Assembly (NCBI GenBank): GCA_029776125.1
Contig: JARVJS010000014.1
Span: 1-56,945, forward strand
Length of the DNA stretch: 56,945 nt
Origin: Nitrososphaeria archaeon
GTDB taxonomy: Archaea > Thermoproteota > Nitrososphaeria > JACIWG01
Direction of reading: 5' to 3'
Positions within the stretch are counted from its first letter, which is position 1; every line of letters begins with the position of its first letter. The notes beneath the pieces were generated by a model. That model did no database searches. It had not been told where the DNA came from and was given only the letters and a program-made list of their open reading frames with translations. This document shows, piece after piece, positions 903 through 39,481 of this stretch. The translations under genes were made by a program, and so were the position numbers.

Positions 903-2432
903 TTATCCTTGAACCTTGTAAATAGAAGTATATGGCTTTACTTCTAAACAAAGGGAAGGTTTTGTTTTAAGCTTAACACCATTTATAACTAATCTTTCAC
1001 CAGGGAAAACATTTTCAATTAGCTGCGTATAATCTCTCCATGCGACTAAGCTTATTTCATCTGTTTCATCCCCTATCAATATTTCCGAAAAACTTATCTT
1101 TTCACCATTTTTTAATTGAATTTCTTTTGATGTAGCTTGCGAGATAGCCACAGCCTTTAGAAAATAAATTTTATTTTCATTGACACTTGCTTTTATACTT
1201 GAAATTTTTTCGTAAAAAGACGACATATCCAATACAGGAGCACCAAATTTTTTACCTATATCAGATGCTTTGGCGCAGACTAGCTTGTCACCCTCTATAA
1301 CTTTGAATACACCTTCCACAGTCTCTCCTGGTTTTATTGATAGCAGAAATGAAGTTACATCTTCTAAACCAATCAACGTATAGTATTTACTGTCATTCGT
1401 GCATACAAGAGCGTTTACTAATGGGGTACCATTTTTTGTTTTCTTTAAGGGGCCTATCGAAAGAACAGTAACATTCATACGGAGGGAGGATACGGACACC
1501 ATAGATAATGGTTTTTGCTGTAGTGGGAGTATGATTGTTTTTTCATCACCATGAAACTCAATTTCGCCTGTTGCTAATGATTTGAATTTCAAAGGCCCAA
1601 TTATCACCGCTGAACCGACCGGTGGAAAACGATCTGTTATATCTTCAGTTAACCATAAAACAACTCTATTCTTTTGGGCAAATGATTTTAGCCCACGCAG
1701 TAAAAACGAACATATTATAACATTTGATCCATCTTTCCTTGTATAATTAGAGATAGAGGGAGGGGTATGTACAACACCCTTTAAGCAGAATAAGGTGGTT
1801 TTAGGTTCAAAATTATCTAGAGGGATCGAGATATCTTCTAATGTTGGTAAGGTTGCTGTGGATTCAGGAACCTTTATCTTTTCTACTGAACCTTTCTGGC
1901 CAATATGTAACGAAGGTGTGTTATCAAAATCTAACTTTACATATGCCTTTTTGATTTGAATTGCTTCATTAGGTTTTAAATTCATGGCCATGATTTCTTC
2001 TGCCTTGGAATCCCAAGCACAACATTTTACTAACCCAGTCTTATCAAAAACTGTAAAAAGAAGTAAAGAACCTTCTGTCAAATCTTTTTTCATATACTTT
2101 CTTAATTTAGAAACAGAACAAACTCTACAATTAATGTTTACAGAATTTGCACCTATATAAAGATCTTTAATTTCAACTGTAGAAGGAAGATTGAATTCTA
2201 AATTTACACCTAAGTCAGCGGCTACTAAATAAGCAGCACCTGTATCGGTTAGATAGCCACTTCCAATTTTTTTCTTCTTTTCCTGGATTAAAGAGATAAT
2301 ATCTTCTCTAGTTAGACCCGAGACCTTCTTTAATATTTCTTCTATTATACTATTTAGGTCACGCATCAGTTTTAACACATAATCTAAGATAAGTGGGTAT
2401 ATATTTGAATTTGGGTAAGAATATTTCAGCAA
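903..2432 (-). CDS. rpa: Replication protein A-like single-stranded DNA-binding protein (multiple OB folds)
   Basis: 509 aa. The N-terminal module LTREDIISLIQEKKKKIGSGYLTDTGAAYLVAADLG is followed by several repeated beta-rich OB-fold-like segments, as in archaeal RPA/RFA. The gene sits among replication genes. Confidence 0.6.
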   Translation of the reverse strand: MLKYSYPNSNIYPLILDYVLKLMRDLNSIIEEILKKVSGLTREDIISLIQEKKKKIGSGYLTDTGAAYLVAADLGVNLEFNLPSTVEIKDLYIGANSVNINCRVCSVSKLRKYMKKDLTEGSLLLFTVFDKTGLVKCCAWDSKAEEIMAMNLKPNEAIQIKKAYVKLDFDNTPSLHIGQKGSVEKIKVPESTATLPTLEDISIPLDNFEPKTTLFCLKGVVHTPPSISNYTRKDGSNVIICSFLLRGLKSFAQKNRVVLWLTEDITDRFPPVGSAVIIGPLKFKSLATGEIEFHGDEKTIILPLQQKPLSMVSVSSLRMNVTVLSIGPLKKTKNGTPLVNALVCTNDSKYYTLIGLEDVTSFLLSIKPGETVEGVFKVIEGDKLVCAKASDIGKKFGAPVLDMSSFYEKISSIKASVNENKIYFLKAVAISQATSKEIQLKNGEKISFSEILIGDETDEISLVAWRDYTQLIENVFPGERLVINGVKLKTKPSLCLEVKPYTSIYKVQG

Positions 2433-4189
2433 ATAAGTACAGCAAAAAATGAAAAAAGCAATAATATAAGCATAAGAAGTATAATTGCACCCTTTTTCAC
2501 CTTAGAAAGAACAGTATTTAAGAAAATTGAGTAAGTATTAATTTGATTTCGACCTAAAATTTTCAGATTAGATAGACAATAATAAGTTTTAAAAGCACCC
2601 GCCCGAAAATCATCTATTAGTTCACTTGCCATATTTACAAGCATTGATACAATATGGTTAAGATTAGATAATTCACCCAACGCGTAGTAACCCTTTTCTG
2701 ATAATATTTTACCTGAGGAAAAATGTGTATCTGTTGTGCATACTTCAATTAAGGATAACCCTTTTTTCTGTAATTCTTTTTCTAGAACAGGCCTCAAATT
2801 TGGCACTGAATTATTAGAGTCTATTGAGTAAATTATGTAATGATAATTATCTATTAGAAGAGCGAGACATGAGATTCCACCTGGACCAATCTCCTTAAAT
2901 ACGAGTGAGCGTTCCTGAGCAAAATTATATCTAAAAGGATATGATGGCGATTTTGTTAACCTTTCAATAAGTTCAGTTAAGCAAGATTTCAAATCTTCTA
3001 TATCTTCCTTAGTTGGAATAGGCCCTAACGCATTATGTGCATCAACTAATATAACCTTCTTTATTCCATTACTTTCTAACCCTTTAACGTATTCATAAAT
3101 TTCTGTTGGAAGATCTTCAACACCATAAGGTGCAAAAGTTATAAAAGCCAATATTATATCAGAAAATTTTAAGCCATTTACAGTAACTTTATTCTTGTTT
3201 ATCTTAATTGGTTTACTGCAAAACGACCCTTGTGAAATAAGGTAAAGATTATTTAATGAATTAAGATAATGTTCTGTTTGATATTTTGAAGGTAAATTAA
3301 CTTCATGTGAGGATGGACTATGAAATACCATTGAGTTAACGTTTTGTGAATTGTAAAAATTTATTATTTCGTAAGGCAAGTTATAACTGCCAATTGGAGA
3401 AAATGGACCTGGATGTATGCCAGGTATAACTAAAGATACGTTTTTGTTACAATTTACTAAATCAATTTTATATGTTTCAATTTTTGATTCAACACTATTT
3501 TTTTCCAATAAATTTTCTAGTGGAGTAGGATCAGAACAAACCCATGCATACAAGTATGAAGATAATATTTTAAATGAACTAACATTAAGCAACGATAAGC
3601 CCACATTATTAATAAATTTGATATAAATTGAAATAAATACAGAGAAAATTAAATTTATTATGAGAGCAATTATTACAATAGGTAGATTTAATGTATTTTT
3701 AAAATATAATTCTAAGAGTACAATAAGGAAGAATGGTAAAAGCAATGCATGAATAAAGGAACTTAAATATTTTTGATAAAATACAGCGTATAATATAAAG
3801 TAACGTAAGTTAAATGTAAAAAATGCCCAAAAAATAAACATTTTTAAAAAAGTGTCAAAATCGAATAAAGTAAAAAGGTTAATAACAAATGATAAAAATG
3901 AAAATAGTAGTAAAGGAGACAGTTGAAAGAGAATTGCGAAGAATATACGTCTTAATGAAGAAATAGGAGAAAAGGATGTTAAAAATACATCAACATACGA
4001 AATGATCAAAATTACAGTTAAAAAGCTTAGAAAAACGAAAGGCAACAGATTTAAATCAGCATAATGATAGAACGGTAAAGATAAAAATATACACGAAATG
4101 ATCAATAACAACAATCCTGTTTTTAATGAAGGAAAACTGAAGAGTTTTTTGTAATGATTTGCAATTTGTGTAGTAGCGTCATCAGCCAT
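2426..4189 (-). CDS. Polytopic membrane protein, DUF2070-like
   Basis: 587 aa. The N-terminal ~220 aa are very hydrophobic (multiple TM helices). A soluble domain and one terminal TM helix follow. Layout and size match archaeal DUF2070 proteins as I recall them. Confidence 0.4.
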   Translation of the reverse strand: MADDATTQIANHYKKLFSFPSLKTGLLLLIISCIFLSLPFYHYADLNLLPFVFLSFLTVILIISYVDVFLTSFSPISSLRRIFFAILFQLSPLLLFSFLSFVINLFTLFDFDTFLKMFIFWAFFTFNLRYFILYAVFYQKYLSSFIHALLLPFFLIVLLELYFKNTLNLPIVIIALIINLIFSVFISIYIKFINNVGLSLLNVSSFKILSSYLYAWVCSDPTPLENLLEKNSVESKIETYKIDLVNCNKNVSLVIPGIHPGPFSPIGSYNLPYEIINFYNSQNVNSMVFHSPSSHEVNLPSKYQTEHYLNSLNNLYLISQGSFCSKPIKINKNKVTVNGLKFSDIILAFITFAPYGVEDLPTEIYEYVKGLESNGIKKVILVDAHNALGPIPTKEDIEDLKSCLTELIERLTKSPSYPFRYNFAQERSLVFKEIGPGGISCLALLIDNYHYIIYSIDSNNSVPNLRPVLEKELQKKGLSLIEVCTTDTHFSSGKILSEKGYYALGELSNLNHIVSMLVNMASELIDDFRAGAFKTYYCLSNLKILGRNQINTYSIFLNTVLSKVKKGAIILLMLILLLFSFFAVLIC

Positions 4190-15305: not shown

Positions 15306-15431
15306 AAGTGTTATTGGGAAACGTGCAATAGTTCCTAAGTGGATCTTAATGTCTTGCTGTATTTTGGCTATATCAACTTAGAATTGGAAAAGTTGACTAG
15401 GCTCAAAGAAAGTAGTGGAAGTAGTATTAAG

Positions 15432-15516
15432 TGCGGGGGGTGGGATTTGAACCCACGAACGCCTACGCGACAGGGTTCTGAGCCCTGCGCCTTTGACCTG
15501 GCTTGGCAACCCCCGC
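15432..15516 (-). tRNA. tRNA-Leu (anticodon CAG)
   Basis: Folded by hand on the minus strand. Acceptor GCGGGGG/CCCCCGC, D arm GCC-AAGCCAGGTCAAA-GGC, anticodon arm CAGGG-CTCAGAA-CCCTG, a 14-nt variable arm, T arm GTGGG-TTCAAAT-CCCAC, discriminator A. Total 85 nt. Confidence 0.9.
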
Positions 15517-16400: not shown

Positions 16401-16499
16401 GCCGGGGTGCCTGAGCGGTCAAAAGGGCCGGCCTCGAGATCTTTCAAGAAAGCCGGTAACGGCCTGTCCGTTGCAAGGGTTCAAATCCCTTCCCCGGCG
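16401..16499 (+). tRNA. tRNA-Ser (anticodon CGA) with a ~12-nt intron at the canonical 37/38 position; integration target of the adjacent element
   Basis: Hand fold. Acceptor GCCGGGG/CCCCGGC, D arm CCT-GAGCGGTCAAA-AGG, anticodon stem CCGGC/GCCGG with loop CTCGAG[ATCTTTCAAGAA]A. An 18-nt variable arm has an AACGG/CCGTT stem. T arm AAGGG-TTCAAAT-CCCTT, discriminator G. Total 99 nt, about 87 nt once spliced. Confidence 0.85.
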
Positions 16500-16500
16500 T
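16485..16500 (+). repeat. attL core (ATCCCTTCCCCGGCGT), part of the tRNA-Ser T arm and acceptor
   Basis: Identical 16-mer at 39466-39481. Confidence 0.7.
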
Positions 16501-16554: not shown

Positions 16555-17730
16555 GTGATGGCTGACATACACTCTTACGCTAGAAGGGTTGCTGCAGTCG
16601 AAGGCCGGCTTCTTGGATCAAACGGGGAGACTGCAGGATCTTTTCTGAAACACCTTCGCGCGAGAGGCTTAACTGACGCCAGACTACACTTTTACGCTAC
16701 AAGACTGTCCAAGATCCTCTGCTTCCTTGACCGCAAAAATCTTAGGCTCCAGGACATTGGAAGAAAGGATGCTGAAGAGTTTCTGGCATGGGTTCTTTCT
16801 CAGCCGTTTAAGGCGTGGACGAAGCACGCTTACGTTCTAGCGTTCAAGAAGCTTGTCTCGTACGCTAAAACAGGCGATTCTGACAACGCTCCCCCTGAAG
16901 TTGCATGGATCAGGCCTCATGCATATTCTAGGGAGGCTGACAAGGAGTCCCGTGCAAGGCCTGAAGCGTTGCTTACAGAAGAGGAGATATTGAAGATCAT
17001 TTCATGCGCTAGGAACTTGAGGGACAGGGCCATGCTCTGGGTTCACTTTGAAGGCGCGCTTAGGCCTGGAGAGCTTCTCACGATGAAGGTTTCGAGTGTA
17101 GAGTTCAGGGACCAATATTGTCTCGTAAGCGTCCACGGCAAAACTGGCTTAAAGCGTCTCCCGCTGGTCATAAGCTTCAGGCCGCTCCTCGACTGGCTCA
17201 ACGTTCACCCGCTAAAAGACGATCCAAGCGCACCACTTTGGGCCAGCCTCTCCCGCTCACGCCATGGAGCCGGCGTCGGATACCAGTATTTCAGGAACAC
17301 GGTTAAAAGGTGCGCTGAAGAAGCCGGCCTAAAGAAGACTGTTTGGCCTTACCTGTTCAGGCACACGCAGCTCACGAGGCTCGCGAAAAAGCTTACCGAA
17401 GCCAAGCTTGCACTGTATGCTGGATGGGTTCAGGGATCCAACATGGCTAAAAAGTATGTTCACTTCAGCGCCAGAGACCTCGAGGAAACGGTTCTAGAAA
17501 TTAATGGGCTCAAGAAGCCTGAAGAAGAGCATTTGAAGCTCCAGCCTAGAATGTGCCCAAGATGCGGCGTCCAAAACAGTCCAGACACTGTAAGATGCTC
17601 ACGATGCGGCCTAGTCCTCGACCACCCGCAGGCAGTCGAAGAGGCTGCAAGAGAGCAGGAGGAGATCGAGTCAATAAAAAGGGAGCTGGAGGAGGTCAAG
17701 GACACCCTCAAACGCATCCTCCAACCCTAA
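16555..17730 (+). CDS. int: Tyrosine recombinase/integrase (XerC/D-like) with C-terminal zinc-ribbon extension
   Basis: 391 aa. N-terminal SAM-like core-binding region, then catalytic-domain blocks GALRPGELLTMK (Arg), LFRHTQLTRL (His-x-x-Arg) and KKYVHFS (Tyr). The tail carries MCPRCGVQNSPDTVRCSRCG. The gene is adjacent to the tRNA att site. Confidence 0.85.
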   Translation: MMADIHSYARRVAAVEGRLLGSNGETAGSFLKHLRARGLTDARLHFYATRLSKILCFLDRKNLRLQDIGRKDAEEFLAWVLSQPFKAWTKHAYVLAFKKLVSYAKTGDSDNAPPEVAWIRPHAYSREADKESRARPEALLTEEEILKIISCARNLRDRAMLWVHFEGALRPGELLTMKVSSVEFRDQYCLVSVHGKTGLKRLPLVISFRPLLDWLNVHPLKDDPSAPLWASLSRSRHGAGVGYQYFRNTVKRCAEEAGLKKTVWPYLFRHTQLTRLAKKLTEAKLALYAGWVQGSNMAKKYVHFSARDLEETVLEINGLKKPEEEHLKLQPRMCPRCGVQNSPDTVRCSRCGLVLDHPQAVEEAAREQEEIESIKRELEEVKDTLKRILQP

Positions 17731-17939
17731 ACCCTCTTTTCAAGCCTCGAAAGACGCTCCTCAATCAACTCGATCCTCCGAACAAGGCTCTCGAGAACAC
17801 TTTTCCGCACAAGAACATGCTCTCCATCCATCAACCAAACCAAAAAGAAAAGCTTAAAAAGAAAAAAGGGGAAACAGCATCCAAAAAACTTAAGCACCTG
17901 CTTAACTTGACAAAAGCATGAAGTGACATTTTGTTGCAA
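17727..17939 (-). CDS. Small hypothetical protein; only the C-terminal ~35 aa coiled-coil part looks credible (ATG at 17831)
   Basis: The sequence from the internal ATG, MDGEHVLVRKSVLESLVRRIELIEERLSRLEKRV, looks helical. The upstream part overlaps repeat DNA. Support is weak. Confidence 0.2.
   Translation of the reverse strand: MQQNVTSCFCQVKQVLKFFGCCFPFFLFKLFFLVWLMDGEHVLVRKSVLESLVRRIELIEERLSRLEKRV
17888..17908 (+). repeat. 21-bp direct repeat copy 1 (ACTTAAGCACCTGCTTAACTT), containing palindrome TTAAGCA-CC-TGCTTAA
   Basis: Exact second copy at 18016-18036. Confidence 0.85.
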
Positions 17940-17982
17940 ACACGACGACTCCAGAATCGACGTAAATGCAACAAAATGTCAC
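17923..17982. repeat. 60-bp hairpin-forming palindrome, copy 1
   Basis: The outer arms are 16-bp perfect complements: GTGACATTTTGTTGCA ... TGCAACAAAATGTCAC. The inner arms are imperfect and carry ACGACGA/TCGACGT. Confidence 0.85.
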
Positions 17983-18015
17983 CTCATGTTATCCTGTACG
18001 CTGGACTGTCAGCAG

Positions 18016-18036
18016 ACTTAAGCACCTGCTTAACTT
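18016..18036 (+). repeat. 21-bp direct repeat copy 2 (ACTTAAGCACCTGCTTAACTT)
   Basis: Exact copy of 17888-17908. Confidence 0.85.
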
Positions 18037-18060
18037 AACCAAAAAAACATTTAACATGAG

Positions 18061-18120
18061 GTAACATTTTGTTGCAAATGCGACGATTCTAGAGTCGTCG
18101 TAAATGCAACAAAATGTTAC
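18061..18120. repeat. 60-bp hairpin-forming palindrome, copy 2
   Basis: GTAACATTTTGTTGCA ... TGCAACAAAATGTTAC. Relative to copy 1, G to A in the left arm is matched by C to T in the right arm, so the symmetry is preserved. Confidence 0.85.
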
Positions 18121-18176
18121 TTCATGGCATGCTTACATTTTTCCTGCTGGGGATAATGTATTCTGTTAAGTTTGCG

Positions 18177-23417: not shown

Positions 23418-25610
23418 TTAAACGCCTTTCTTCCGCATCCCTTTATGGACAACTGCTGCACACACTATGGCAAGTAAAGCTATCGCTATAACAGTGCCCG
23501 TTAACCATATTGTAGCAGATTCCGGCTGCCCAGTTGAAGTGGTTGAGGTTGTTAAGGTGGTGGTTGTTGGCTGAGAAGTTGTTGTCGGAGAAGGAGGGGT
23601 TGTAGTGGTTAAGGTTGTGGTTGTTGGCGCTTGGACTGTTACAGTTTTCTGGCTTAAGCCTACGTTTCCTGCAGCATCTCTGACCTTCAATGTCACCAGA
23701 TATGTTCCAGGATTCTTGTAGGTGTAGGTAAAGGTTTTCTCGAACACTATTGTGCCGTCTCCAAGGTTCCACTCGTAGCCTACTACAGCGAAGTTGTCGC
23801 TTGCAACAGCATCGAATATGATAGTTTCACCAACTCTTATAGTCTGGTCTGGGCCTGCGTCAGCCAAAGGCTTAGTCATATCCAATATGATTGACGCTTC
23901 ATATGTTTGTGAAACGAGGCCTGCCCTATCCTTAAACTGCACATACACTGTTTTAGGTCCATCGCCAGCATCCAAAGTCCAAGGCATTGGAGAAGAAAAT
24001 GGCCGCCAACTGCTCCAAACACGTTCATCGTTGCTTAAACGCACTTCCGCTACACCAGACAAATTATCGTACCCTAACAGAATGAGATTCACTAAAGTGC
24101 TGTTCGTGTACTTTGAACCTTCATTTATGGCAACGGAGCCTGTGGGAGGAGACAAATCCAACTTTATTCCCTTCAAAAAGTGATGTTCTTCCTCGTTTCC
24201 AGCATAGTCGACACTCCAATATTCTAGAGTATTGTTGAAACCCTCGTCACTAATCCAAGGCTGTCCGTCTGCACCAACACTGCGAACAGGCCCACCATTA
24301 ACTCGATAGAAGGTTTCAGCTACGCCGCTTAAATCGTCTGAGGCAGTCAAGTTTATAGAAAAATAGCTTGTGTGCCAAAGGCCATCGTAGTCGTCGACTG
24401 TAACGGGAGGCATACTGTCTCCAACTTCAAGAACCTTAACGTTAGCTGTCGTACTATTTTTGAACCCGAACTCGTCAACAACTGTTAGAGTCACACTATA
24501 GTCGCCGGACACAGTATAACTGTGCACGACTTTCGGAGACAATGTAGTAGTAACGTTACCGTCACCGAAATCCCAAACATACTTGACAATAGAACTGTAT
24601 AGGCCAAAACTTGCTGACCCGTCAAAAGCCACCTTCTTGCCCACGGAAACCATGGACGGCGAATACGAGAATTTAACAATTAAAGGAAGTGTGGGCGTGT
24701 CAGGGTGAGGCTCAACTAGAATCGGCAAATACTCGATAAAGCCTGCGCAGGTTATGTCATCCTTCTTATCGTAAATCATTGAATCAATAACAGCTGTGTC
24801 ATTGGTTCCCCAATAATTTTCAGTCGCAATCATAGCCGCTTCACGAATTCCTGGATACAATTTCAAAACTGTTCCACTCACACCGATAAATGAATTATAT
24901 TTAACAACTGTTTTTCCCACATAACTTGCCCAATTTTCTACGACAAAACCCCTGTTTCCTTTGAAGAGATTATACCTTATGTAAACGTTGCGACCGCCGC
25001 TTCCAACAGAAAAGCCAGCCGAGTTTATAAAAATATTATATTCCACATAGACATCTCTCATAGGATACCACACATATGAGAAGTCTTTCAAGTTAATTAG
25101 TTCACAATATTTTATGCTAAAGGAACCATATGTGGAGTAACCCGTCGCAGGCCAAAGACTTAATCCGTCCCTAATGATGCAGTAACTTAGATTCAAAAAC
25201 GATGATTCGCCAGAACTTTTGGGGCTAAAAAAATTAGAAACTCCTCCGCCGTCAAAAACTATTTTATTAGCAGGCGTCCCATGAGCCTCAATTCTCCCAT
25301 GCAATAGAAACATGTCAGGTGGGCTGCGGCTGACGACCGTCACACCCGGTTCAATGGTAAGAGTCACATTCTCCGGTATCTGCACGGTCTCAACTACAAT
25401 ATACGGACTATTCTCCAGCGTCCACACAGTATCCTTCCAGATTATCCCGCCGACAGTCGTACCCGAGCCGCTGGAGCCCACGGCCTCCACCCCACCAAAA
25501 ACTGTCCCAGAAACAGGAAAACATGAAAATAGGACAACAATAGCCAGAATCCCCAAAAAACTCTTGCACACTCTGAACATCATATCACATAAGCCTCTGC
25601 GGAAAAACAA
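23418..25610 (-). CDS. Secreted, membrane-anchored surface protein with right-handed beta-helix region, two PKD domains and Ig-like domains
   Basis: 730 aa. Signal-like N-terminus (likely start MMFRVCKSFLGILAIVVLF). Repetitive beta-helix segment. PKD signatures WDFGDGN...HSYTVSGDYSVTLTVVDEFG and WNLGDGT...YTYKNPGTYLVTLKVRDAAGN. DxLSGV Ig-like modules, a Thr/Pro-rich stalk, and a C-terminal TM helix plus a basic tail. Confidence 0.7.
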   Translation of the reverse strand: MFFRRGLCDMMFRVCKSFLGILAIVVLFSCFPVSGTVFGGVEAVGSSGSGTTVGGIIWKDTVWTLENSPYIVVETVQIPENVTLTIEPGVTVVSRSPPDMFLLHGRIEAHGTPANKIVFDGGGVSNFFSPKSSGESSFLNLSYCIIRDGLSLWPATGYSTYGSFSIKYCELINLKDFSYVWYPMRDVYVEYNIFINSAGFSVGSGGRNVYIRYNLFKGNRGFVVENWASYVGKTVVKYNSFIGVSGTVLKLYPGIREAAMIATENYWGTNDTAVIDSMIYDKKDDITCAGFIEYLPILVEPHPDTPTLPLIVKFSYSPSMVSVGKKVAFDGSASFGLYSSIVKYVWDFGDGNVTTTLSPKVVHSYTVSGDYSVTLTVVDEFGFKNSTTANVKVLEVGDSMPPVTVDDYDGLWHTSYFSINLTASDDLSGVAETFYRVNGGPVRSVGADGQPWISDEGFNNTLEYWSVDYAGNEEEHHFLKGIKLDLSPPTGSVAINEGSKYTNSTLVNLILLGYDNLSGVAEVRLSNDERVWSSWRPFSSPMPWTLDAGDGPKTVYVQFKDRAGLVSQTYEASIILDMTKPLADAGPDQTIRVGETIIFDAVASDNFAVVGYEWNLGDGTIVFEKTFTYTYKNPGTYLVTLKVRDAAGNVGLSQKTVTVQAPTTTTLTTTTPPSPTTTSQPTTTTLTTSTTSTGQPESATIWLTGTVIAIALLAIVCAAVVHKGMRKKGV

Positions 25611-28187: not shown

Positions 28188-28428
28188 TACACTGTTCCAG
28201 CGGAGGGGAAAATGTATCGGGGGCGAAAAAAGAGAGTAGACTAGGCTGAAGAAGCTTGCGTGATGTTCACCCGACCACCCTTCCCCTGGCCTGCGGAAGA
28301 AGACGGGGAAGCCGGACTCTCCCACCACCTTCTTTCACACGCTGGAAAAAGGTGGAGAAAAAGGAGTGTGGAAGGAGAAGGGGAAAACAGTTAAATGGGG
28401 GCGGAAAAACATTCTGCCACAGAAGAAA

Positions 28429-29058
28429 ATGTCATCCCGTCCAGAAGACGGTAGAAAGGCGTCCGAAAAGATCCTGTCCACAGCATCAGCAAACGGACCT
28501 AAATCTTCTGCCAAAAGAGAAAACAGGATTGTTGGAAAAACCATTCTGGCAGCAGCAACCGTGTTCGGAATCCTCCTCCTAACAGGACTTCTGATGGAGG
28601 CAACGGCACCAGAAACTTTGACAGCATCGAAAACCGCTGCCGCCACCAGCACTGTAGCCGAAACAGTCTACGGGGCAGGAGAACCTGTCATCGCAGGAAA
28701 CCTAGCGTACACGGTCGAAAAAGTTTACACAGCAGACCGGATCGCGTTCGCGAAAGCAGACGGCGTATACGTGATAGTCTCCCTCACAATAGAAAACGTT
28801 GGCAAAGAAACCGTCACAGTAGACAGTGAAATGCTAAAAATAGAGGACGAACAGGGCCGAACATACAGTGCAAACGATGACGCAACAGTCTTCCTCGACC
28901 GCGGCTTAATCGTGAGACAGTTTCAGCCAAACATCCCCTCCAGAGCAGACATCGCATTCGACGTCCCCAAAAACATAGGCAGAATCAGCCTAAGAGTCTA
29001 CTCTGACAAAAACTCCAAAGAATACAAGCTCATAGACCTGGGCACAGCAGCAGACTAG
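28429..29058 (+). CDS. Membrane-anchored DUF4352-like (Ig-fold) protein
   Basis: I prefer the ATG at 28429 (MSSRPEDG); the ORF track starts at the GTG at 28366. TM helix ILAAATVFGILLLTGLL. The segment YTVEKVYTADRI...VYVIVSLTIENVGKETVTVDSEMLKIEDEQGRTYSA...ADIAFDVPKN matches the DUF4352 pattern. Confidence 0.6.
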   Translation: MSSRPEDGRKASEKILSTASANGPKSSAKRENRIVGKTILAAATVFGILLLTGLLMEATAPETLTASKTAAATSTVAETVYGAGEPVIAGNLAYTVEKVYTADRIAFAKADGVYVIVSLTIENVGKETVTVDSEMLKIEDEQGRTYSANDDATVFLDRGLIVRQFQPNIPSRADIAFDVPKNIGRISLRVYSDKNSKEYKLIDLGTAAD

Positions 29059-29070
29059 GCCAGCTTACAC

Positions 29071-29988
29071 TCAACACTCCCCCAAAGGATAGAACATGTA
29101 ATATTCTGGAGCAACATTAACCATGCCATAGCCTGGCGGAAAACATTTCCAAAGCTTACCCGGATCATCCTTGACTTCCACAACAACCTTAGGCCGCCAC
29201 CTTCCAATAGACTCCCTCATCCCCTCCAAAACCATAAGCTCAGCACCCTCCACGTCAACCTTAACAAAATCGATCCTCCCAACATCCTCCAGCAGAAAAT
29301 CAAGTGGAACAGCTGGAACAGCATAAAACCTTTCCCCAACATCGAAGACAACACTATTGTGTCCCATGCTCCTTCCAACCTTCAACCTAACCTCCCCAAA
29401 CCCATTCCATGCGGCAACATTGTATAAGACAACATTATCTAGCCCGTTAACGCGAACATTTTTAGCCAAAACAGAGAAGGTGCGCGGACAAGCTTCCACC
29501 GCAACAACCTTAGCATGCGGAAAACGTTTAGCAACCTGCACAGCATACTTTCCAACATGAGCTCCAACGTCAACAAACACGCCACCATCACCCAAGCAGA
29601 CAAGATCCCACATCCACCTCTCGAAATCGTCTGACACAATAAACAGGCTTTCGACGTCAACAGCGTGGAAAACACATTCTCCAACCCTAACCCTTGCACC
29701 AGAAACAATCCTGTCACCCAACCCCCTAACATGCTCCAGGAAACCAGCCTTCTCCACAAAAAGATTCGGCACACTAGCAAACAGTGCAGCAAAAAAGATT
29801 CTAACAGCATCCAGAACACCCTGTCCCCGGAAAACGAACCCGAACCTGCGGAAAAAATATTCCAGGAAACCCCTCAAACTGTGCCCACGAACCCCTCTAC
29901 CAGACATCATCATACAAGACGTCCACCGTTTAAAAGGAGAACATGGGAGACAGTGGACCAGAAGAGGGGAGCAGGCTTCCCAGAACAT
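29071..29988 (-). CDS. FkbM-family SAM-dependent methyltransferase
   Basis: VFVDVGAHVGKYAVQVAKRF (SAM-binding motif I), VVAVEACPRTFSVLAKN, and FVKVDVEGAELMVLEGM (the typical FkbM C-terminal block). The true start is probably internal (MMMSGRG). Confidence 0.75.
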   Translation of the reverse strand: MFWEACSPLLVHCLPCSPFKRWTSCMMMSGRGVRGHSLRGFLEYFFRRFGFVFRGQGVLDAVRIFFAALFASVPNLFVEKAGFLEHVRGLGDRIVSGARVRVGECVFHAVDVESLFIVSDDFERWMWDLVCLGDGGVFVDVGAHVGKYAVQVAKRFPHAKVVAVEACPRTFSVLAKNVRVNGLDNVVLYNVAAWNGFGEVRLKVGRSMGHNSVVFDVGERFYAVPAVPLDFLLEDVGRIDFVKVDVEGAELMVLEGMRESIGRWRPKVVVEVKDDPGKLWKCFPPGYGMVNVAPEYYMFYPLGEC

Positions 29989-34593: not shown

Positions 34594-37080
34594 ATGAGTC
34601 CAACACCATCAAAAAAGTTGAATAAGGTCGTTGGAACGCTAGAAGTGTTTATACTTCTTCTGCCAATTTTTGCTGGAGCATCTTCTCTTACACCAGTAGG
34701 CTATGCGAAGGCCATGTCTTACGTTAACCAGGACATTTTAGTGGACACTGTGTGGGACAAAAGTGGAAGCCCATATATTATACAGAAGAGTATCATGGTA
34801 GCAGAAGGTGCCACGTTGAAGATTGAGCCGGGCGTGGAAGTCGATGTCATCGAAAAGTCTACGATAACAGTGTACGGTAAAATTGTTGCAGGATCTGTTG
34901 GAGGAGAAGCTGTTAACGTTAAAGGCTGGGGTAAGCCTGGAACATTCTCTGTCCAAGTCAAAGGCGGAAATCTTCACATAGAAAATGCTGTGATAGAAAA
35001 TGTTCTTATGACGTTAGAGGATGCTGACGTGAAACTTTCTAGGCTGAAGACAGGGTCTTTTACGATAGACGTGTTCAACAGGTCCATGTTGGCAGCCGCG
35101 GGACTTGAAGCCGAAAGCCTGAAAGTCGGTGGAGGAAAATGTGGTATAGCATACTCTATCCTGTCCATAGAAAATTCGGAGGTCAAGTCAATCGAGGTTT
35201 CAGGATACGCTGGAGTTTACTGTTCGACTGTTAGACTGTCGGATGTCCAGAGCCAGACGATGAAAGTGGCTGGAAAGCCGCCATACTGGGTAGGCGGTGT
35301 GATGGGAGTCGACGTCTACAATTCCACAGTGTACTTTAACATGGTTTATGCTGGCAAAGTCGACATGAGCGGATATGGCGGCTTCAGGCACTCTTTCATA
35401 AAATTCGATGGCGGTAGGGTGGGAGACATTATCATGCCGCTTGACGTCTACAATTCTACTGTAGAAGTCTATTCTGTGGAAGCGGATACAGTAAACTTCT
35501 GTCCCGGTACGATGGTGCGTTCGAAAACCTTTTTCGAGAACGTTGTCGCGAACAAGATAATGTTCAACGGAAGCAAGTACTGGGGTGAAATCGCTTCCAA
35601 TTCGAACATTACATTCAACCGCATCGTGTGCAGGACATTGGCTGTTTCAGGCATGTCGGGAGACAGTGGAATCGACGTGAGAAACAGTACTATAAAGATT
35701 GTTGGGTCCACAGTCGCATACGGTTCAGGAGTGTACGTCAGGTGCCTCACGAACTCGGTTCTGGAAATAAGTGGATCAAACGTTTACGGAAACAGTCCAT
35801 ACGGCCTCTATGTTGGATCATCGTCTGGCATGATTATAGGCAAAAATCCTGTCGTTAAAGTGGACGGAAACTGGTGGGGTGACGCTAGCGGACCAACCAA
35901 TCCAAAACTTAATCCGGGCGGAAAAGGCGACACCATCATAGTTCCAGACAATACTACAATATCCAAGTGGCTTACTTCTCCAGCGGGAGGAGCTGTGATG
36001 CCAAGGTCTAGGCTTGAGCCAGCGAATCCTGTTATAGCAAGAGGAAGTCCAGCATCTTTTATGGTAGCAGCTGAAGGAAGCAGGATAGCCGCATGCTTCA
36101 TGGACTTCGGAGACGGTTCTGTGTCAGGCTGGACACGTGACCTGCCAGTAGTCCACGTGTATAATGCGGTTGGAGAATATCTGGTTACAGCGTACACGGT
36201 GCACGAGAACATGCTTTTAACTAAAGCATCTGCTTTGGTCAGGGTGGCGTCACCTCCTTCCGTTAAAATAGTGTCTCCTGCAAACGGTACACTATTAAAA
36301 GATAACATGGTGAAAGTGGATGTTAACGTAGAGGATCCGGTTGGGATAATATTGTGCCAGATTAAAGTGGACGATTTTACTAGAACCGTGAAACCGAATA
36401 CTACAAGATACGCTGGAACAGTCTCTTTGGGTCCTATAGCGGACGGGTGGCATCTTGTCGAGGTCAATGCTACAAACGTGTTTGGGCTATCATCTTTGGA
36501 TAACGTTGTTGTCGGAACAGACACTATCACCCCATGTATAGAAATAGAAGCTCCTCCAGCAACAAGCGGAACCTTCACTTTGAAATGGAATATAACAGAC
36601 AATTTTAGCGGCGTGAACCCTGACAGCGTCAGAATATCGTGTGGAAGAATATATTTTCCACGTGCGGTCGTCGGAAGCATTAACCTCACAATTGATGCCA
36701 CAACAAACATTATAGTTTATGCTGCAGACTATGCTGGAAACACTATTGAAGCAAACTTTACGATAAAGTATGTTGGAAAAACTTCTACAGCTACTGCAAC
36801 AGCCTCTCAGACTGAAACTTCTTCTTCCACTGAACCGTGTTCCAGCGAATCTTCTACTATACCATCGTATCATGGGCAGGAAGGCGAATACGATTGGATA
36901 AACTATGTTGTACCCTTCGTTATCCTGGCAGCAGTTGTAGCTGCGGTCGCGTTAGCTGTCGTCTATAGGTTCAGGAGAAAGAGGGAGGTTGCCGAAATTA
37001 AGGCGATTGAAGGTGAAACCGTGGAAGGCGGGCAGGCTGGAGCAGGCGGGGCAGGGGGCGGAGGAAATGAAGCTGTTTGA
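34594..37080 (+). CDS. Secreted, membrane-anchored surface protein with beta-helix repeats, PKD domain and Ig-like domains
   Basis: 828 aa. Signal-like N-terminus (VFILLLPIFAGASS), a long repetitive beta-helix-like region, and the PKD signature FMDFGDGSVSGW...VHVYNAVGEYLVTAYTV. Also a DNFSGV Ig-like module, a Ser/Thr-rich stalk, a C-terminal TM helix (VVPFVILAAVVAAVALAVVY) and a basic/Gly-rich tail. Confidence 0.7.
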   Translation: MSPTPSKKLNKVVGTLEVFILLLPIFAGASSLTPVGYAKAMSYVNQDILVDTVWDKSGSPYIIQKSIMVAEGATLKIEPGVEVDVIEKSTITVYGKIVAGSVGGEAVNVKGWGKPGTFSVQVKGGNLHIENAVIENVLMTLEDADVKLSRLKTGSFTIDVFNRSMLAAAGLEAESLKVGGGKCGIAYSILSIENSEVKSIEVSGYAGVYCSTVRLSDVQSQTMKVAGKPPYWVGGVMGVDVYNSTVYFNMVYAGKVDMSGYGGFRHSFIKFDGGRVGDIIMPLDVYNSTVEVYSVEADTVNFCPGTMVRSKTFFENVVANKIMFNGSKYWGEIASNSNITFNRIVCRTLAVSGMSGDSGIDVRNSTIKIVGSTVAYGSGVYVRCLTNSVLEISGSNVYGNSPYGLYVGSSSGMIIGKNPVVKVDGNWWGDASGPTNPKLNPGGKGDTIIVPDNTTISKWLTSPAGGAVMPRSRLEPANPVIARGSPASFMVAAEGSRIAACFMDFGDGSVSGWTRDLPVVHVYNAVGEYLVTAYTVHENMLLTKASALVRVASPPSVKIVSPANGTLLKDNMVKVDVNVEDPVGIILCQIKVDDFTRTVKPNTTRYAGTVSLGPIADGWHLVEVNATNVFGLSSLDNVVVGTDTITPCIEIEAPPATSGTFTLKWNITDNFSGVNPDSVRISCGRIYFPRAVVGSINLTIDATTNIIVYAADYAGNTIEANFTIKYVGKTSTATATASQTETSSSTEPCSSESSTIPSYHGQEGEYDWINYVVPFVILAAVVAAVALAVVYRFRRKREVAEIKAIEGETVEGGQAGAGGAGGGGNEAV

Positions 37081-38935
37081 GCATACAATGGTCAATATCT
37101 TCCTGTTTGTGGCAATAGTGTCAGTTGTCACATACTATCCTTTGCCGATTCCACACTTTTCTAACTTCATGTCATATACGGAGTTCACTGGAATGCCTAG
37201 CACGAGTCTTCCACCAGATTTCGGTGAGAAACTGACAGAGTTCATTGACATGTGTGTATGGTGGCCTACAATTTTTGTGAAAATGTTGACCGGGGCAGCA
37301 AGTTGGCCGTATTCTGCAACGATGCAACTTGGTGTAGTCTATCTTAGTTGGATAATTTTTATTGCTGCAAGCGGTGTACCAGACCTAGATTCTGAAGGCG
37401 GCAACATACTAAGCGTTGTATTGTATCTTCCTCTAACATTCCTCCTATGGGCTCTGAAGAAGATTGCGCCTGAACCATTCAGGCACAGGGGTGCCGCGCA
37501 CAGCATATTTTATGCACTACTCGCGTCAGCAGTAAACTTTCTTCTGATGTACTTACTCTATGTTTTTGTCGTGCGAGCGATTGGCGTAAACACATTCATT
37601 GGAGGGTTGCTGGAAACCATGGCTATTTTTTCGGCTTCACTTTTGCCACTATGCTATCTAGGGCACATTCTGTTTGACACTTCAACCGAGTCCGGGGTCA
37701 GACTATTCTATCCTCTTTCGAACAAAGTCTTCTATGGAAAATTTTGGCCAGTGTTCGCTTCCCCGCTTCTACCATTCGCATACTTTATTATTGTACCATT
37801 CATTCCCAGGCAGGAGACTGCAGTCTACTGGACACAATTTTACAGCCTGTTTCCGCCAGCGTTCGCTCTATCGCTTGCACTTATACCGACGTCGATAGCT
37901 GTTAGTACATTGACTAGGAAGCCGGGAAAGTCTAAGGTAGGCAGTCTTCCTAGGACAGTGGACACAATTTTACAAGCCGATTACCCGCATGGTTCAGAGG
38001 ACACGGTGTCAGAAAGTTTGCAGGACAAAATGTTGGAAGAACGTAGGAGGAGTCTGGAGAAAGCGGAGGCTGAAAGGAGACAGGGGACTGCAATGAAGAT
38101 TATAATGGAGAAGGTTTTGGAGACTGCGAAGGACAGTGGGAAAGGCGAAGAATCTTTGCTGGAGAAAAGGAAAGCTGGAGGCCGGAAAAATAATGTTGCA
38201 CTAGAGTCCATTTGGTTCCAGGAAAAGGATTTGGAGAAAGTGTGGGCGTTCTATCTCCAGAAGAACGGTGGATCCGTTAACAGAGCGTTAGAAGAGTTTA
38301 AGCTGAAGGCTGAAGCGTTCAAGAAAACGAGTGAGGGGAAAGGGTTAGCTGAGCAAATTGACACTGTTGTAAAAGAGATCGTCGACGAAATAGCAAAAAA
38401 GAAAGTATTTGAAGAGGAAATTTATAGGAAAGCTAAAGAGGAATTGTCTAAAATGGAAAGTCAGCCTATAAAACAGGAGTATGCGACACCGAAACCTGTT
38501 GAACAGATACAAAACCTGTTGAACAGAAAACCAAAACCTGTTGAACAGATAAAGGATTCAAAAAATCTGCCGGCAATTAGGTCACCAGATTTGAAAAGGA
38601 TCCAAAAGGTTTGGAAAGTTGACGTTAAAGACATGCGACCAGAAAGACCTAAAGAATTGGTAGAAGGTGGATTTTATGAGGACGCGTATGTGTCAGCGTT
38701 CTCATTACTTGAATATGTGTTAAAGAAGAATATGAAAATGATTTATGGCGACTTCCGTGCCGTACTTGACAAAATGGTGGAAGAAGAAAAAATTTCTTCT
38801 ACACTAAAAGAAAGAATCAGCCAATATTATGATATAAGAAACGGTGTGGTACACTCTGGCAGGAAAGTTTCTTTTAAAGAAGTTCGCGAATTCGTTAACT
38901 TCGTGTACGATGTGTTAGAGGGTCAAGTACACTAG
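37067..38935 (+). CDS. Fusion protein with N-terminal YdjM/DUF457-type membrane domain, charged coiled-coil linker and C-terminal HEPN domain
   Basis: I prefer the ATG at 37067, which follows GGAGGAA; the ORF track starts at 36989 inside the upstream gene. The polytopic N-terminus has VPDLDSEGG and FRHRGAAHSIFYAL, which are DUF457 hallmarks. About 230 aa of Lys/Glu-rich linker follow. The C-terminal FYEDAYVSAFSLLEYVLKK...YYDIRNGVVHSG carries the Rx4H HEPN motif. Confidence 0.6.
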   Translation: MKLFEHTMVNIFLFVAIVSVVTYYPLPIPHFSNFMSYTEFTGMPSTSLPPDFGEKLTEFIDMCVWWPTIFVKMLTGAASWPYSATMQLGVVYLSWIIFIAASGVPDLDSEGGNILSVVLYLPLTFLLWALKKIAPEPFRHRGAAHSIFYALLASAVNFLLMYLLYVFVVRAIGVNTFIGGLLETMAIFSASLLPLCYLGHILFDTSTESGVRLFYPLSNKVFYGKFWPVFASPLLPFAYFIIVPFIPRQETAVYWTQFYSLFPPAFALSLALIPTSIAVSTLTRKPGKSKVGSLPRTVDTILQADYPHGSEDTVSESLQDKMLEERRRSLEKAEAERRQGTAMKIIMEKVLETAKDSGKGEESLLEKRKAGGRKNNVALESIWFQEKDLEKVWAFYLQKNGGSVNRALEEFKLKAEAFKKTSEGKGLAEQIDTVVKEIVDEIAKKKVFEEEIYRKAKEELSKMESQPIKQEYATPKPVEQIQNLLNRKPKPVEQIKDSKNLPAIRSPDLKRIQKVWKVDVKDMRPERPKELVEGGFYEDAYVSAFSLLEYVLKKNMKMIYGDFRAVLDKMVEEEKISSTLKERISQYYDIRNGVVHSGRKVSFKEVREFVNFVYDVLEGQVH

Positions 38936-39465
38936 AAACTGATTCTTAATCATAACAAATATACGATGAACTAACATTTTTCAAATGAATTTTAGTATCA
39001 CTCTTTGAGTTGATGAACATTTTAAAGGAAAAATGTCTGCCACATTTGGCACGAATTCAAACACACTCTGTAGCCAAAAAAGACTAGAGTTATATAGAAA
39101 TTAGAACTAAATATTTTTTCTCAAGCTAGATACGAAACAAGTGAAGCATGATTTAAATGCTCGTGGCTTATAAAGCATGTAGACTTAGGCACACCAGAAA
39201 AATCGAAGACATCAAAAAGATATGATCCAAGATCAGAATAGCTCTCTCAAAATTCATATTCGCTCGCCTCTGTTGAGGTTCCTACCAGCCTAGATAATTG
39301 GGTAAAACTTAGGTAAAAGTAGATAAAAAAACTGGAAAAATAAAACATAAAGAAAATATCAAAATAAAATTTTCTTTGACAACGTTGGTTAAAGACCAGA
39401 TTTCTAAACGCCTAAATTTATAAAAAAGTTTGATCCGAAAGACGGGCGCCAAACAAAAAACTTTT

Positions 39466-39481
39466 ATCCCTTCCCCGGCGT
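39466..39481 (+). repeat. attR core (ATCCCTTCCCCGGCGT), displaced tRNA-Ser 3-prime fragment
   Basis: Identical 16-mer at 16485-16500. Host-like AT-rich core genes resume downstream. Confidence 0.7.

Follow-up and report, generated by a model that had tools for sequence, protein, structure and literature searches.

A YdjM/DUF457 membrane protein with an exchangeable, very probably HEPN-type C-terminal module in an integrated element of a Nitrososphaeria archaeon

Contig JARVJS010000014.1 of a Nitrososphaeria archaeon (GenBank assembly GCA_029776125.1), which we analyzed over its whole length of 56,945 nucleotides (hereafter the window), contains at 37067..38935 on the plus strand a single unbroken open reading frame (ORF) that begins with ATG and encodes a protein of 622 amino acids (aa), named by NCBI 'MAG: metal-dependent hydrolase [Nitrososphaeria archaeon]' (MAG, metagenome-assembled genome). 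The protein joins a polytopic membrane domain of the YdjM/DUF457 family (aa 1-285; 37067..37921, plus strand) through a long charged linker (aa 286-520) to a C-terminal, four-helix domain that is very probably of the HEPN type (aa 521-622; 38627..38932, plus strand). Its gene is the last one in an integrated mobile element and follows a co-oriented gene for a type-I-anchored surface protein (34594..37080, plus strand), with which it shares a 14-nt overlap, just as the initial annotation of this DNA had described. The longest stop-to-stop frame opens further upstream, with a TTG (36989); when the ATG at 37067 is taken as the start, a histidine comes to lie at position 6, matching Escherichia coli YdjM in the alignment. 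Because contig L003, which belongs to another MAG (GCA_038874495.1) and was assembled independently, is 99.95% identical at the DNA level over 5675 bp, in a stretch that covers the surface-protein gene, the fusion gene and the downstream host genes, the fusion is not a sequencing or frameshift artifact: the single continuous frame claimed by the initial annotation holds up, and the intact ORF in this second assembly rules out two genes merged by a frame error.

By profile, motifs and polytopic layout, that is, by every criterion that we checked, the N-terminal part is a member of the YdjM family (YdjM/YbcI, DUF457, PF04307, COG1988). The Pfam YdjM profile PF04307 aligns, over its positions 27-162 of 176, with aa 92-260 and scores 47.7 bits (E=1.6e-12), the gathering cut-off being 29, and the one sister allele of the gene, described below, likewise scores above this cut-off. 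All four YdjM motif blocks (an N-terminal His, PDxD, HRGxxHS and HxxxD) are kept, the last three as PDLD (aa 105-108; 37379..37390), HRGAAHS (aa 140-146; 37484..37504) and HILFD (aa 200-204; 37664..37678), all on the plus strand, and the columns identical with E. coli K-12 YdjM comprise H6, P105-D106-x-D108, F138-x-H140-R-G-x-x-H145-S146 and Y197-L-x-H200-I-L-x-D204. Kyte-Doolittle hydropathy delineates ~7 segments between aa 3 and 283, where AILMFVW residues make up 52%, so that the polytopic DUF457 domain with PDLD and HRGxxHS signatures that had been proposed at the outset is borne out. The two proteins differ in several respects: the E. coli protein has 196 aa and lacks a cytoplasmic extension, whereas the archaeal one has a 337-aa extension predicted to be cytoplasmic, a ~70-aa insertion after the first transmembrane (TM) segment and extra C-terminal TM segments, and it reads PDLDS where E. 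coli has PDIDH, the His after PDxD being replaced by Ser. The WWP at aa 65-67 aligns to the WW of E. coli YdjM. Because, in a seven-segment model, 14 Lys and Arg residues fall in loops on the side of the C-terminus and three on the other side, the C-terminal part of the protein is predicted by the positive-inside rule to be cytoplasmic.

The C-terminal domain carries the Rx4H motif RNGVVH (aa 591-596; 38837..38854, plus strand) that had been pointed out initially, with a polar residue (N) after the arginine. Because a bare Rx4H string is expected about once by chance in a protein of 622 aa (a second R..H string lies inside a YdjM motif), the motif alone is not significant, and the assignment to HEPN must rest on other evidence. 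Pfam scores refer to the isolated C-terminal fragment of 127 aa, with HEPN defined as Pfam clan CL0291 together with the families of PMC3710099. The best HEPN profile was DUF4145, a member of the clan (E=0.0037; 17.7 bits against a cut-off of 23.1), and it covers the motif region, as does HEPN_RiboL-PSP (E=0.0052; 17.1 bits against 28.4); NCBIfam HepT scored 15.1 bits against a cut-off of 60 (E=0.015), and the PADLOC CARF_HEPN models and DzbB matched the domain at E=0.005-0.01. The unrelated profile SHCBP_N scores similarly (E=0.0058), which indicates where the noise level lies. An exhaustive phmmer search of the same 127 aa against 1.84 billion cluster representatives yielded a single real homolog, P0003 from an IMG metagenome (538 aa; E=3.7e-6, 30% identity over ~110 residues); the second match, a repeat protein (P0004), looks spurious. 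P0003 is a SIR2_2 protein, assigned by its source name to the YutE/DUF86 family, whose C-terminus matches Hypoth_Ymh, HepT-like, HEPN_Swt1, RiboL-PSP, DUF4145 and PADLOC Csx1, all of them HEPN and all of them sub-threshold. The alignment of the two proteins retains PK.L.E.G.Y, an acidic LLE/VLE in helix 1, and I-R-N-x3-H, with RNGVVH corresponding to RNQIAH in P0003.

Two single-sequence AlphaFold2 models, one of the full-length protein and one of aa 473-622, both predict four helices in the C-terminal domain, at aa 534-556, 563-572, 578-597 and 603-621, at a predicted local distance difference test (pLDDT) value around 50-60. Foldseek comparisons with the Protein Data Bank (PDB) returned HEPN proteins in 29 of the top 30 matches (probability at most 0.99, E=0.05-0.5, TM-score 0.35-0.53), among them the HepT toxins 7bxo, 5yep and 7ae6, AF_0298 (2hsb, probability 0.99) and YutE (1ylm, 0.98). 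The initial annotation had named profile searches as the check on its HEPN call; these gave matches below the curated cut-offs, and further support came from homology to P0003 and from the folds retrieved by Foldseek. Each line is individually weak; their convergence argues that the C-terminal domain is very probably a divergent HEPN domain with an intact catalytic motif.

Besides near-identical copies, the only other relative of the protein is an allele of 599 aa (P0002) on contig L001 (GCA_038886015.1). From the start codon to window position ~38325 (aa ~420) the two genes are ~98% identical in DNA, after which identity drops to ~55% and then to background. The recombination breakpoint lies at 38325..38361, where the GC content of third codon positions (GC3) also falls, from 0.53 to 0.37 (element genes range from 0.43 to 0.58 and host genes from 0.14 to 0.23); a third MAG contig (L004) ends exactly at 38325, which we take as support for the breakpoint because assemblers stop where haplotypes fork. 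The 59 aa past the break still show 37% protein identity to P0002 (BLASTP E=8e-9), and after aa ~477 there is no relationship between the two proteins, the C-terminus of P0002 being an Alba domain (PDB 1nh9, E=1.9e-5, residues 2-85 of 87 aligned). Since a ~98% identical scaffold leads to HEPN in one allele and to Alba in the other, and since both the GC3 drop and the end of L004 coincide with the break, the C-terminal module is, by this comparison, exchangeable. The scaffold itself appears to be maintained, given that the alleles differ over aa 1-419 by 23 synonymous and 23 non-synonymous changes, a ratio of non-synonymous to synonymous rates (dN/dS) of 0.29 that indicates purifying selection on this part. 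Moreover, because the linker past the break is homologous but diverged, the alignments have both alleles descending from YdjM-linker-X genes of full length, with a recent homogenization of their 5′ parts, and this shared full-length ancestry argues against an accidental chimera.

The linker that connects the modules comprises a first part (aa 286-420; 37922..38326, plus strand), which is ~98% identical in nucleotides to the Alba-type allele and consists of a basic juxtamembrane stretch, a helix and a small helical sub-domain, and a second part (aa 421-520; 38327..38626, plus strand) made of a predicted helix followed by a disordered tether rich in Pro and Lys. Over aa 286-520 it contains 20% K+R and 18% D+E. 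In the low-confidence AlphaFold2 model, two long helices of ~39 residues each span aa 316-354 and 425-463, and the ~40-aa Pro/Lys-rich stretch at aa 464-505 is modeled as disordered; the full-length model reaches its highest confidence (61-76) at aa 360-419 (38144..38323), in the small sub-domain, which is built of four short helices. This sub-domain (EESLLEKRK...LESIWFQEKDLEKVWAFYLQKNGGSVNRALEEFKLKAEAFKK) is fully conserved in the Alba allele and has no Pfam family and no PDB sequence match; for the linker as a whole, neither PDB sequence searches nor family searches gave a meaningful match. A test of heptad register on the two long helices, in which 43-44% of shuffles reached the observed score, revealed no periodicity above shuffles and leaves a coiled coil unsupported. 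Of the long charged coiled coil first proposed for this region, the charge and part of the helicity thus remain and the coiled coil does not; the models support a charged tether of ~235 aa, partly helical and partly disordered. Within the disordered part, three tandem units of 20-22 nt (AAACCTGTTGAACAGA) at 38488..38551 encode PKPVEQI twice; they lie at the very point where the Alba allele ceases to be homologous and may be a scar of recombination or slippage.

The upstream gene encodes a surface protein of 828 aa (Pfam PKD, E=5.4e-8, with weaker matches to Big_7 and Beta_helix), a length for which the label 'giant' in the initial annotation was too strong. Its layout comprises a signal-like N-terminus, a beta-helix, PKD and Ig-like domains, a Ser/Thr-rich stalk, a C-terminal TM anchor and a short basic tail, and its pairing with the YdjM gene is kept in four of four contigs. 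Compared with L004 over 34594..38325, the window shows 113 differences, of which 110 fall upstream of the YdjM start codon, in what is essentially the surface-protein gene (~4%; dN/dS 0.27), and the adjoining 1.26 kb of the YdjM gene has only three. Divergence in this two-gene operon is, at least in this alignment, mosaic, with the surface-protein gene diverging much faster. Two antisense ORFs inside the surface-protein gene, at 35808..36710 (minus strand, 300 aa) and 36490..36873 (minus strand, 127 aa), are probably not genes.

Both genes belong to a ~23-kb island that extends from ~16.4 to ~39 kb and has a GC content of 45-50%, in contrast to the ~30% of the host chromosome, which in the window carries Hef, the PolD small subunit and UPF0147. 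The integration target is a tRNA gene with a long variable arm and a ~12-nt intron (16401..16499, plus strand; Rfam RF00005, 47.6 bits), missed by ARAGORN, found by Rfam and read by eye as a tRNA-Ser(CGA), whose 3′ end forms attL. The attL core, ATCCCTTCCCCGGCGT (16485..16500, plus strand), consists of the last 15 nt of the tRNA plus one, and it recurs as an exact 16-nt direct repeat in the attR core (39466..39481, plus strand), after which the host UPF0147 and Hef genes follow; this repeat occurs twice in the window and in none of 100 shuffles. An intact tyrosine recombinase (integrase) gene adjoins attL (16555..17730, plus strand; Pfam Phage_integrase, E=9.6e-14). At the other end, an AT-rich, non-coding tail (38936..39465, no strand assigned; GC 0.31) has no ORF of at least 50 aa and no Rfam match, and it separates the HEPN-type gene, the last of the element, by 530 bp from attR, which confirms the initial proposal that this is the terminal gene of a mobile element.

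Other genes of the element encode a ParB-like protein, which is the sole match to PHROGs among the element genes, a bPH_2 membrane protein as well as a winged helix-turn-helix protein. Envelope-related cargo is also present, in the form of a second large surface protein, of 730 aa and with PKD repeats (23418..25610, minus strand), a DUF4352 protein (28366..29058, plus strand) and an FkbM-type methyltransferase (29071..29988, minus strand). No viral or conjugation hallmarks were found among the element ORFs scanned with Pfam and PHROGs (most, not all, of them). Because it combines an integrase, direct repeats that match a tRNA gene and a composition unlike that of the host, the element fits the 'cryptic integrated elements' of Thaumarchaeota as set out in PMC6563490, which also records a HEPN nuclease as casposon cargo in Thaumarchaeota. 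A second tRNA gene, for Leu (CAG), lies on the other strand at 15431..15516, 0.9 kb from the integration target, with an HD-domain gene of host GC content between the two. In L001, what comes after the Alba-type gene is not attR but more element-like DNA (GC ~45%) that carries different genes: at 2070..4007 this contig encodes a 503-aa protein of no clear family (with a weak polyprenyl-synthetase match) and then an incomplete protein whose CxxxCxxC motif is radical-SAM-like, both without counterpart in the window. A near-perfect palindrome of ~72 nt (CATGAAGTGACATTTTGTTGCAAA...) occurs in two copies at 17888..18133, just 3′ of the integrase gene and each preceded by a 28-nt direct repeat; it is also found over the stop codon of the Alba-type allele (L001 1893..2010), and there is none 3′ of the HEPN allele. 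The palindrome could be a hairpin terminator, a repeat resembling a miniature inverted-repeat transposable element or a recombination site.

Searches for further relatives returned little. A word-indexed protein search with the full-length query recovered the identical protein and the one sister allele only; the same search with the N-terminal 320 aa gave no match, not even to the identical protein, which we take to be tool behavior, and a two-sequence HEPN alignment gave none in it either. When GTDB representative genomes, IMG/VR and JGI metagenomes were scanned with peptide patterns from the YdjM part, no relative was detected, patterns from the HEPN part detected none in scans of the collections, and neither the surface protein nor the integrase has a relative in IMG/VR. 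A degenerate DNA pattern for FRHRGAAHS had 64 loci in GTDB genomes, of which the 20 inspected motif ORFs were off-frame chance matches in GC-rich bacteria; none of the 64 loci contained an ORF matching the protein by phmmer. Tblastn against plasmids and phages was likewise without match. In the literature we found no described DUF457-HEPN fusion, and a survey of HEPN proteins (PMC3710099) with one of its supplementary files does not include YdjM. A preprint on Cap1 that came up as a candidate source on DUF457, with 66 matches to 'DUF457', concerns DUF4579, which is unrelated.

The architecture is best placed by comparison with the membrane-associated HEPN proteins of bacteria, of which three groups are known: one with a single TM helix and a WP signature, one with a single TM helix and a helical domain, and one with two TM helices and a Zn-ribbon (Anantharaman et al., PMC3710099). 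They share with the archaeal protein a predicted cytoplasmic HEPN domain, an Rx4-6H motif and fused TM segments, and one of them is DUF4145-like, DUF4145 being also the best Pfam match of our domain. However, none has a polytopic YdjM/DUF457 domain or a tether of ~235 aa, and the protein described here is archaeal and element-borne; its N-terminus, a polytopic YdjM domain rather than one TM helix with a WP signature, rules out membership in the DUF4145-like single-TM group. That RNA is cleaved at the inner membrane face upon a surface stimulus had already been proposed for these membrane HEPN groups (PMC3710099). The fusion is thus real and unusual, with YdjM as a new partner in a membrane-tethered HEPN concept that has been described before: the statement in the initial annotation that the architecture is undescribed stands as far as the particular fusion goes, whereas membrane-tethered HEPN RNases had already been described as a class.

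More distant systems offer analogies rather than membership. Ire1 and RNase L with their KEN domain, discussed in PMC3710099, would be analogous in so far as a C-terminal HEPN-type RNase is membrane-anchored and activated by oligomerization, but our protein has neither a kinase domain nor a luminal sensor and no sequence relation to them beyond the superfamily. HepT/MntA (HEPN/MNT, type VII toxin-antitoxin) provides the best structural matches (7bxo, 5yep, 7ae6), a weak HepT score and RNxxxH; the archaeal protein nevertheless scores 15 bits against a cut-off of 60, is fused to a membrane protein and has no adjacent MNT gene, for which reason membership was rejected. In P0003, the N-terminal partner of HEPN is a soluble SIR2_2 domain (ThsA/Dsr-like) instead of a membrane domain. 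Csx28 of type VI-B CRISPR (10.1101/2021.11.02.466367) sets a precedent in antiviral defense, being a small membrane protein whose HEPN domain is divergent; it is pore-forming and depends on Cas13b, whereas our protein has no CRISPR context and an unrelated membrane domain.

Our preferred reading, which we hold tentatively, is that the protein is a modular, membrane-anchored, nucleic-acid-targeting protein, with a HEPN RNase beneath the membrane that would serve a conflict role encoded by the element. Such a role fits the location of the gene as cargo at the element end, effector modules that can be swapped, and what is known of HEPN biology; conflict systems typically combine a constant N-terminal part with swappable C-terminal modules. 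The HEPN domain would act as a metal-independent endoribonuclease that needs two Rx4H motifs brought together, two side-by-side motifs being the general HEPN mechanism (PMC3710099). The products of HEPN RNases end in 2',3'-cyclic phosphates. The YdjM domain would hold HEPN at the inner membrane face and would control it by its own state of oligomerization, in the way known from Ire1 and its KEN domain, and RNA cleavage would then be confined to, or triggered at, the membrane, in order to exclude competing elements or viruses or to abort infection, with the adjacent surface protein possibly supplying the input. A farther-reaching version, which we consider unlikely, would make YdjM/DUF457 a sensor scaffold for membrane state or infection that controls exchangeable cytoplasmic nucleic-acid modules through the long tether: an envelope stimulus, possibly relayed by the surface protein, would cluster the membrane domain, produce a HEPN dimer and set off RNA cleavage beneath the membrane, which would serve exclusion or abortive infection, and the HEPN allele would constitute an archaeal, element-borne, Ire1-like system.

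A number of observations count against a membrane-bound HEPN RNase in conflict. No HEPN-clan profile reaches its curated cut-off, the whole protein has no match among the PADLOC defense models, and PDB sequence searches with the HEPN part and the HEPN profile returned no meaningful match; the AlphaFold2 models are of low confidence, with a mean pLDDT of 52 for aa 473-622 and of 45 for the full-length protein. No antitoxin, MNT gene or other defense partner lies beside the gene, which is flanked by the surface-protein gene upstream and by the 530-bp tail downstream. As for the membrane domain, we found no functional or biochemical literature on YdjM/DUF457, a family predicted to have metal-dependent hydrolase activity, and the topology of the motif-bearing loops is uncertain because a simple seven-TM model puts H6 and PDLD on the opposite side of the membrane from HRGxxHS and HxxxD. 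Alba, in the sister allele, is a nucleic-acid binder and not a toxin, and fits tethering as well as a toxic role. Lastly, the gene occurs in four contigs only, all of them NCBI MAG assemblies whose accession numbers are adjacent (GCA_03887-03888 series), the source metagenomes being GCA_038881555.1, GCA_038874495.1, GCA_038873995.1 and GCA_038886015.1, and the HEPN allele occurs solely as near-identical copies (99.95% DNA identity), a set too uniform to show evolutionary conservation of the HEPN part.

Several of these points would be accommodated if the protein were a membrane tether rather than a toxin, in which YdjM and the linker anchor Alba or HEPN under the membrane and so localize element DNA or specific RNAs, for instance to segregate with the help of the ParB-like protein, to be exported or to have the surface proteins of the element translated on site, with HEPN acting mainly as an RNA binder or processing enzyme. 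The bona fide Alba domain of the sister allele, the absence of an antitoxin or immunity gene beside the HEPN allele, and an element that encodes ParB along with several surface proteins all point this way, and a long, flexible linker suits capture over catalysis. We nonetheless regard this as rather unlikely: we know of no precedent for a membrane-tethered Alba or HEPN domain in segregation, and the catalytic Arg, Asn and His are intact and conserved with the SIR2-HEPN homolog P0003, whereas non-catalytic HEPN domains usually lose their catalytic residues (PMC3710099). The logic might also run in reverse, such that HEPN or Alba senses foreign RNA or DNA in the cytoplasm and YdjM is the effector, a membrane-damaging hydrolase or pore, by analogy to the CARF-transmembrane effectors of type III CRISPR systems. 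This would agree with the retention of all YdjM His/Asp motifs and with a membrane domain that is conserved and under selection while the cytoplasmic domain is swappable. It is improbable in our estimation, since no activity is known for any YdjM protein, the long tether and the surface-protein partner would be left unexplained, and HEPN domains with intact Rx4H are, to our knowledge, effectors in the systems that have been characterized. Membrane effectors driven by cytoplasmic ligand-binding domains are nonetheless established, as in the case of Cap1 (DUF4579, not DUF457), in which such a domain controls a membrane effector (10.1101/2025.11.13.688252).

The sharp discontinuity of identity and GC3 inside the gene raises a different possibility, namely that the protein is a recent chimera without function, in which a YdjM-linker gene was joined to a lower-GC fragment near the element end and the HEPN-like tail is fortuitous, decaying or not HEPN at all. 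Such an origin would account for an HEPN-like domain that is nearly an orphan, that scores below profile cut-offs and that is seen only in copies of 99.95% identity. However, no stop interrupts the 202 codons that come after the break, and the 59 aa that follow the break are homologous to the other allele (37%, E=8e-9), indicating that the parents were full-length members of one gene family; the tail, in addition, has a homolog in P0003 in which the catalytic motif is conserved, as well as its HEPN fold matches. We therefore judge a functionless chimera to be improbable, and return to a membrane-anchored HEPN RNase in element-encoded conflict as the reading, still tentative, that we prefer.

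The practical weight of these results is modest, their basis being four MAG contigs and predictions. The exchange of HEPN for Alba on a 98%-identical scaffold is nevertheless a clean natural domain swap within an element-borne operon, and the protein would offer a compact test case for how membrane anchoring controls a HEPN nuclease. Should its HEPN domain prove to be an active RNase, the class of membrane-tethered HEPN RNases, which has so far been predicted only in bacteria, would extend to the mobile elements of archaea. For YdjM/DUF457, a family found across bacteria and archaea, the fusion to a nucleic-acid-targeting domain, in two alleles, is one of few clues to function.

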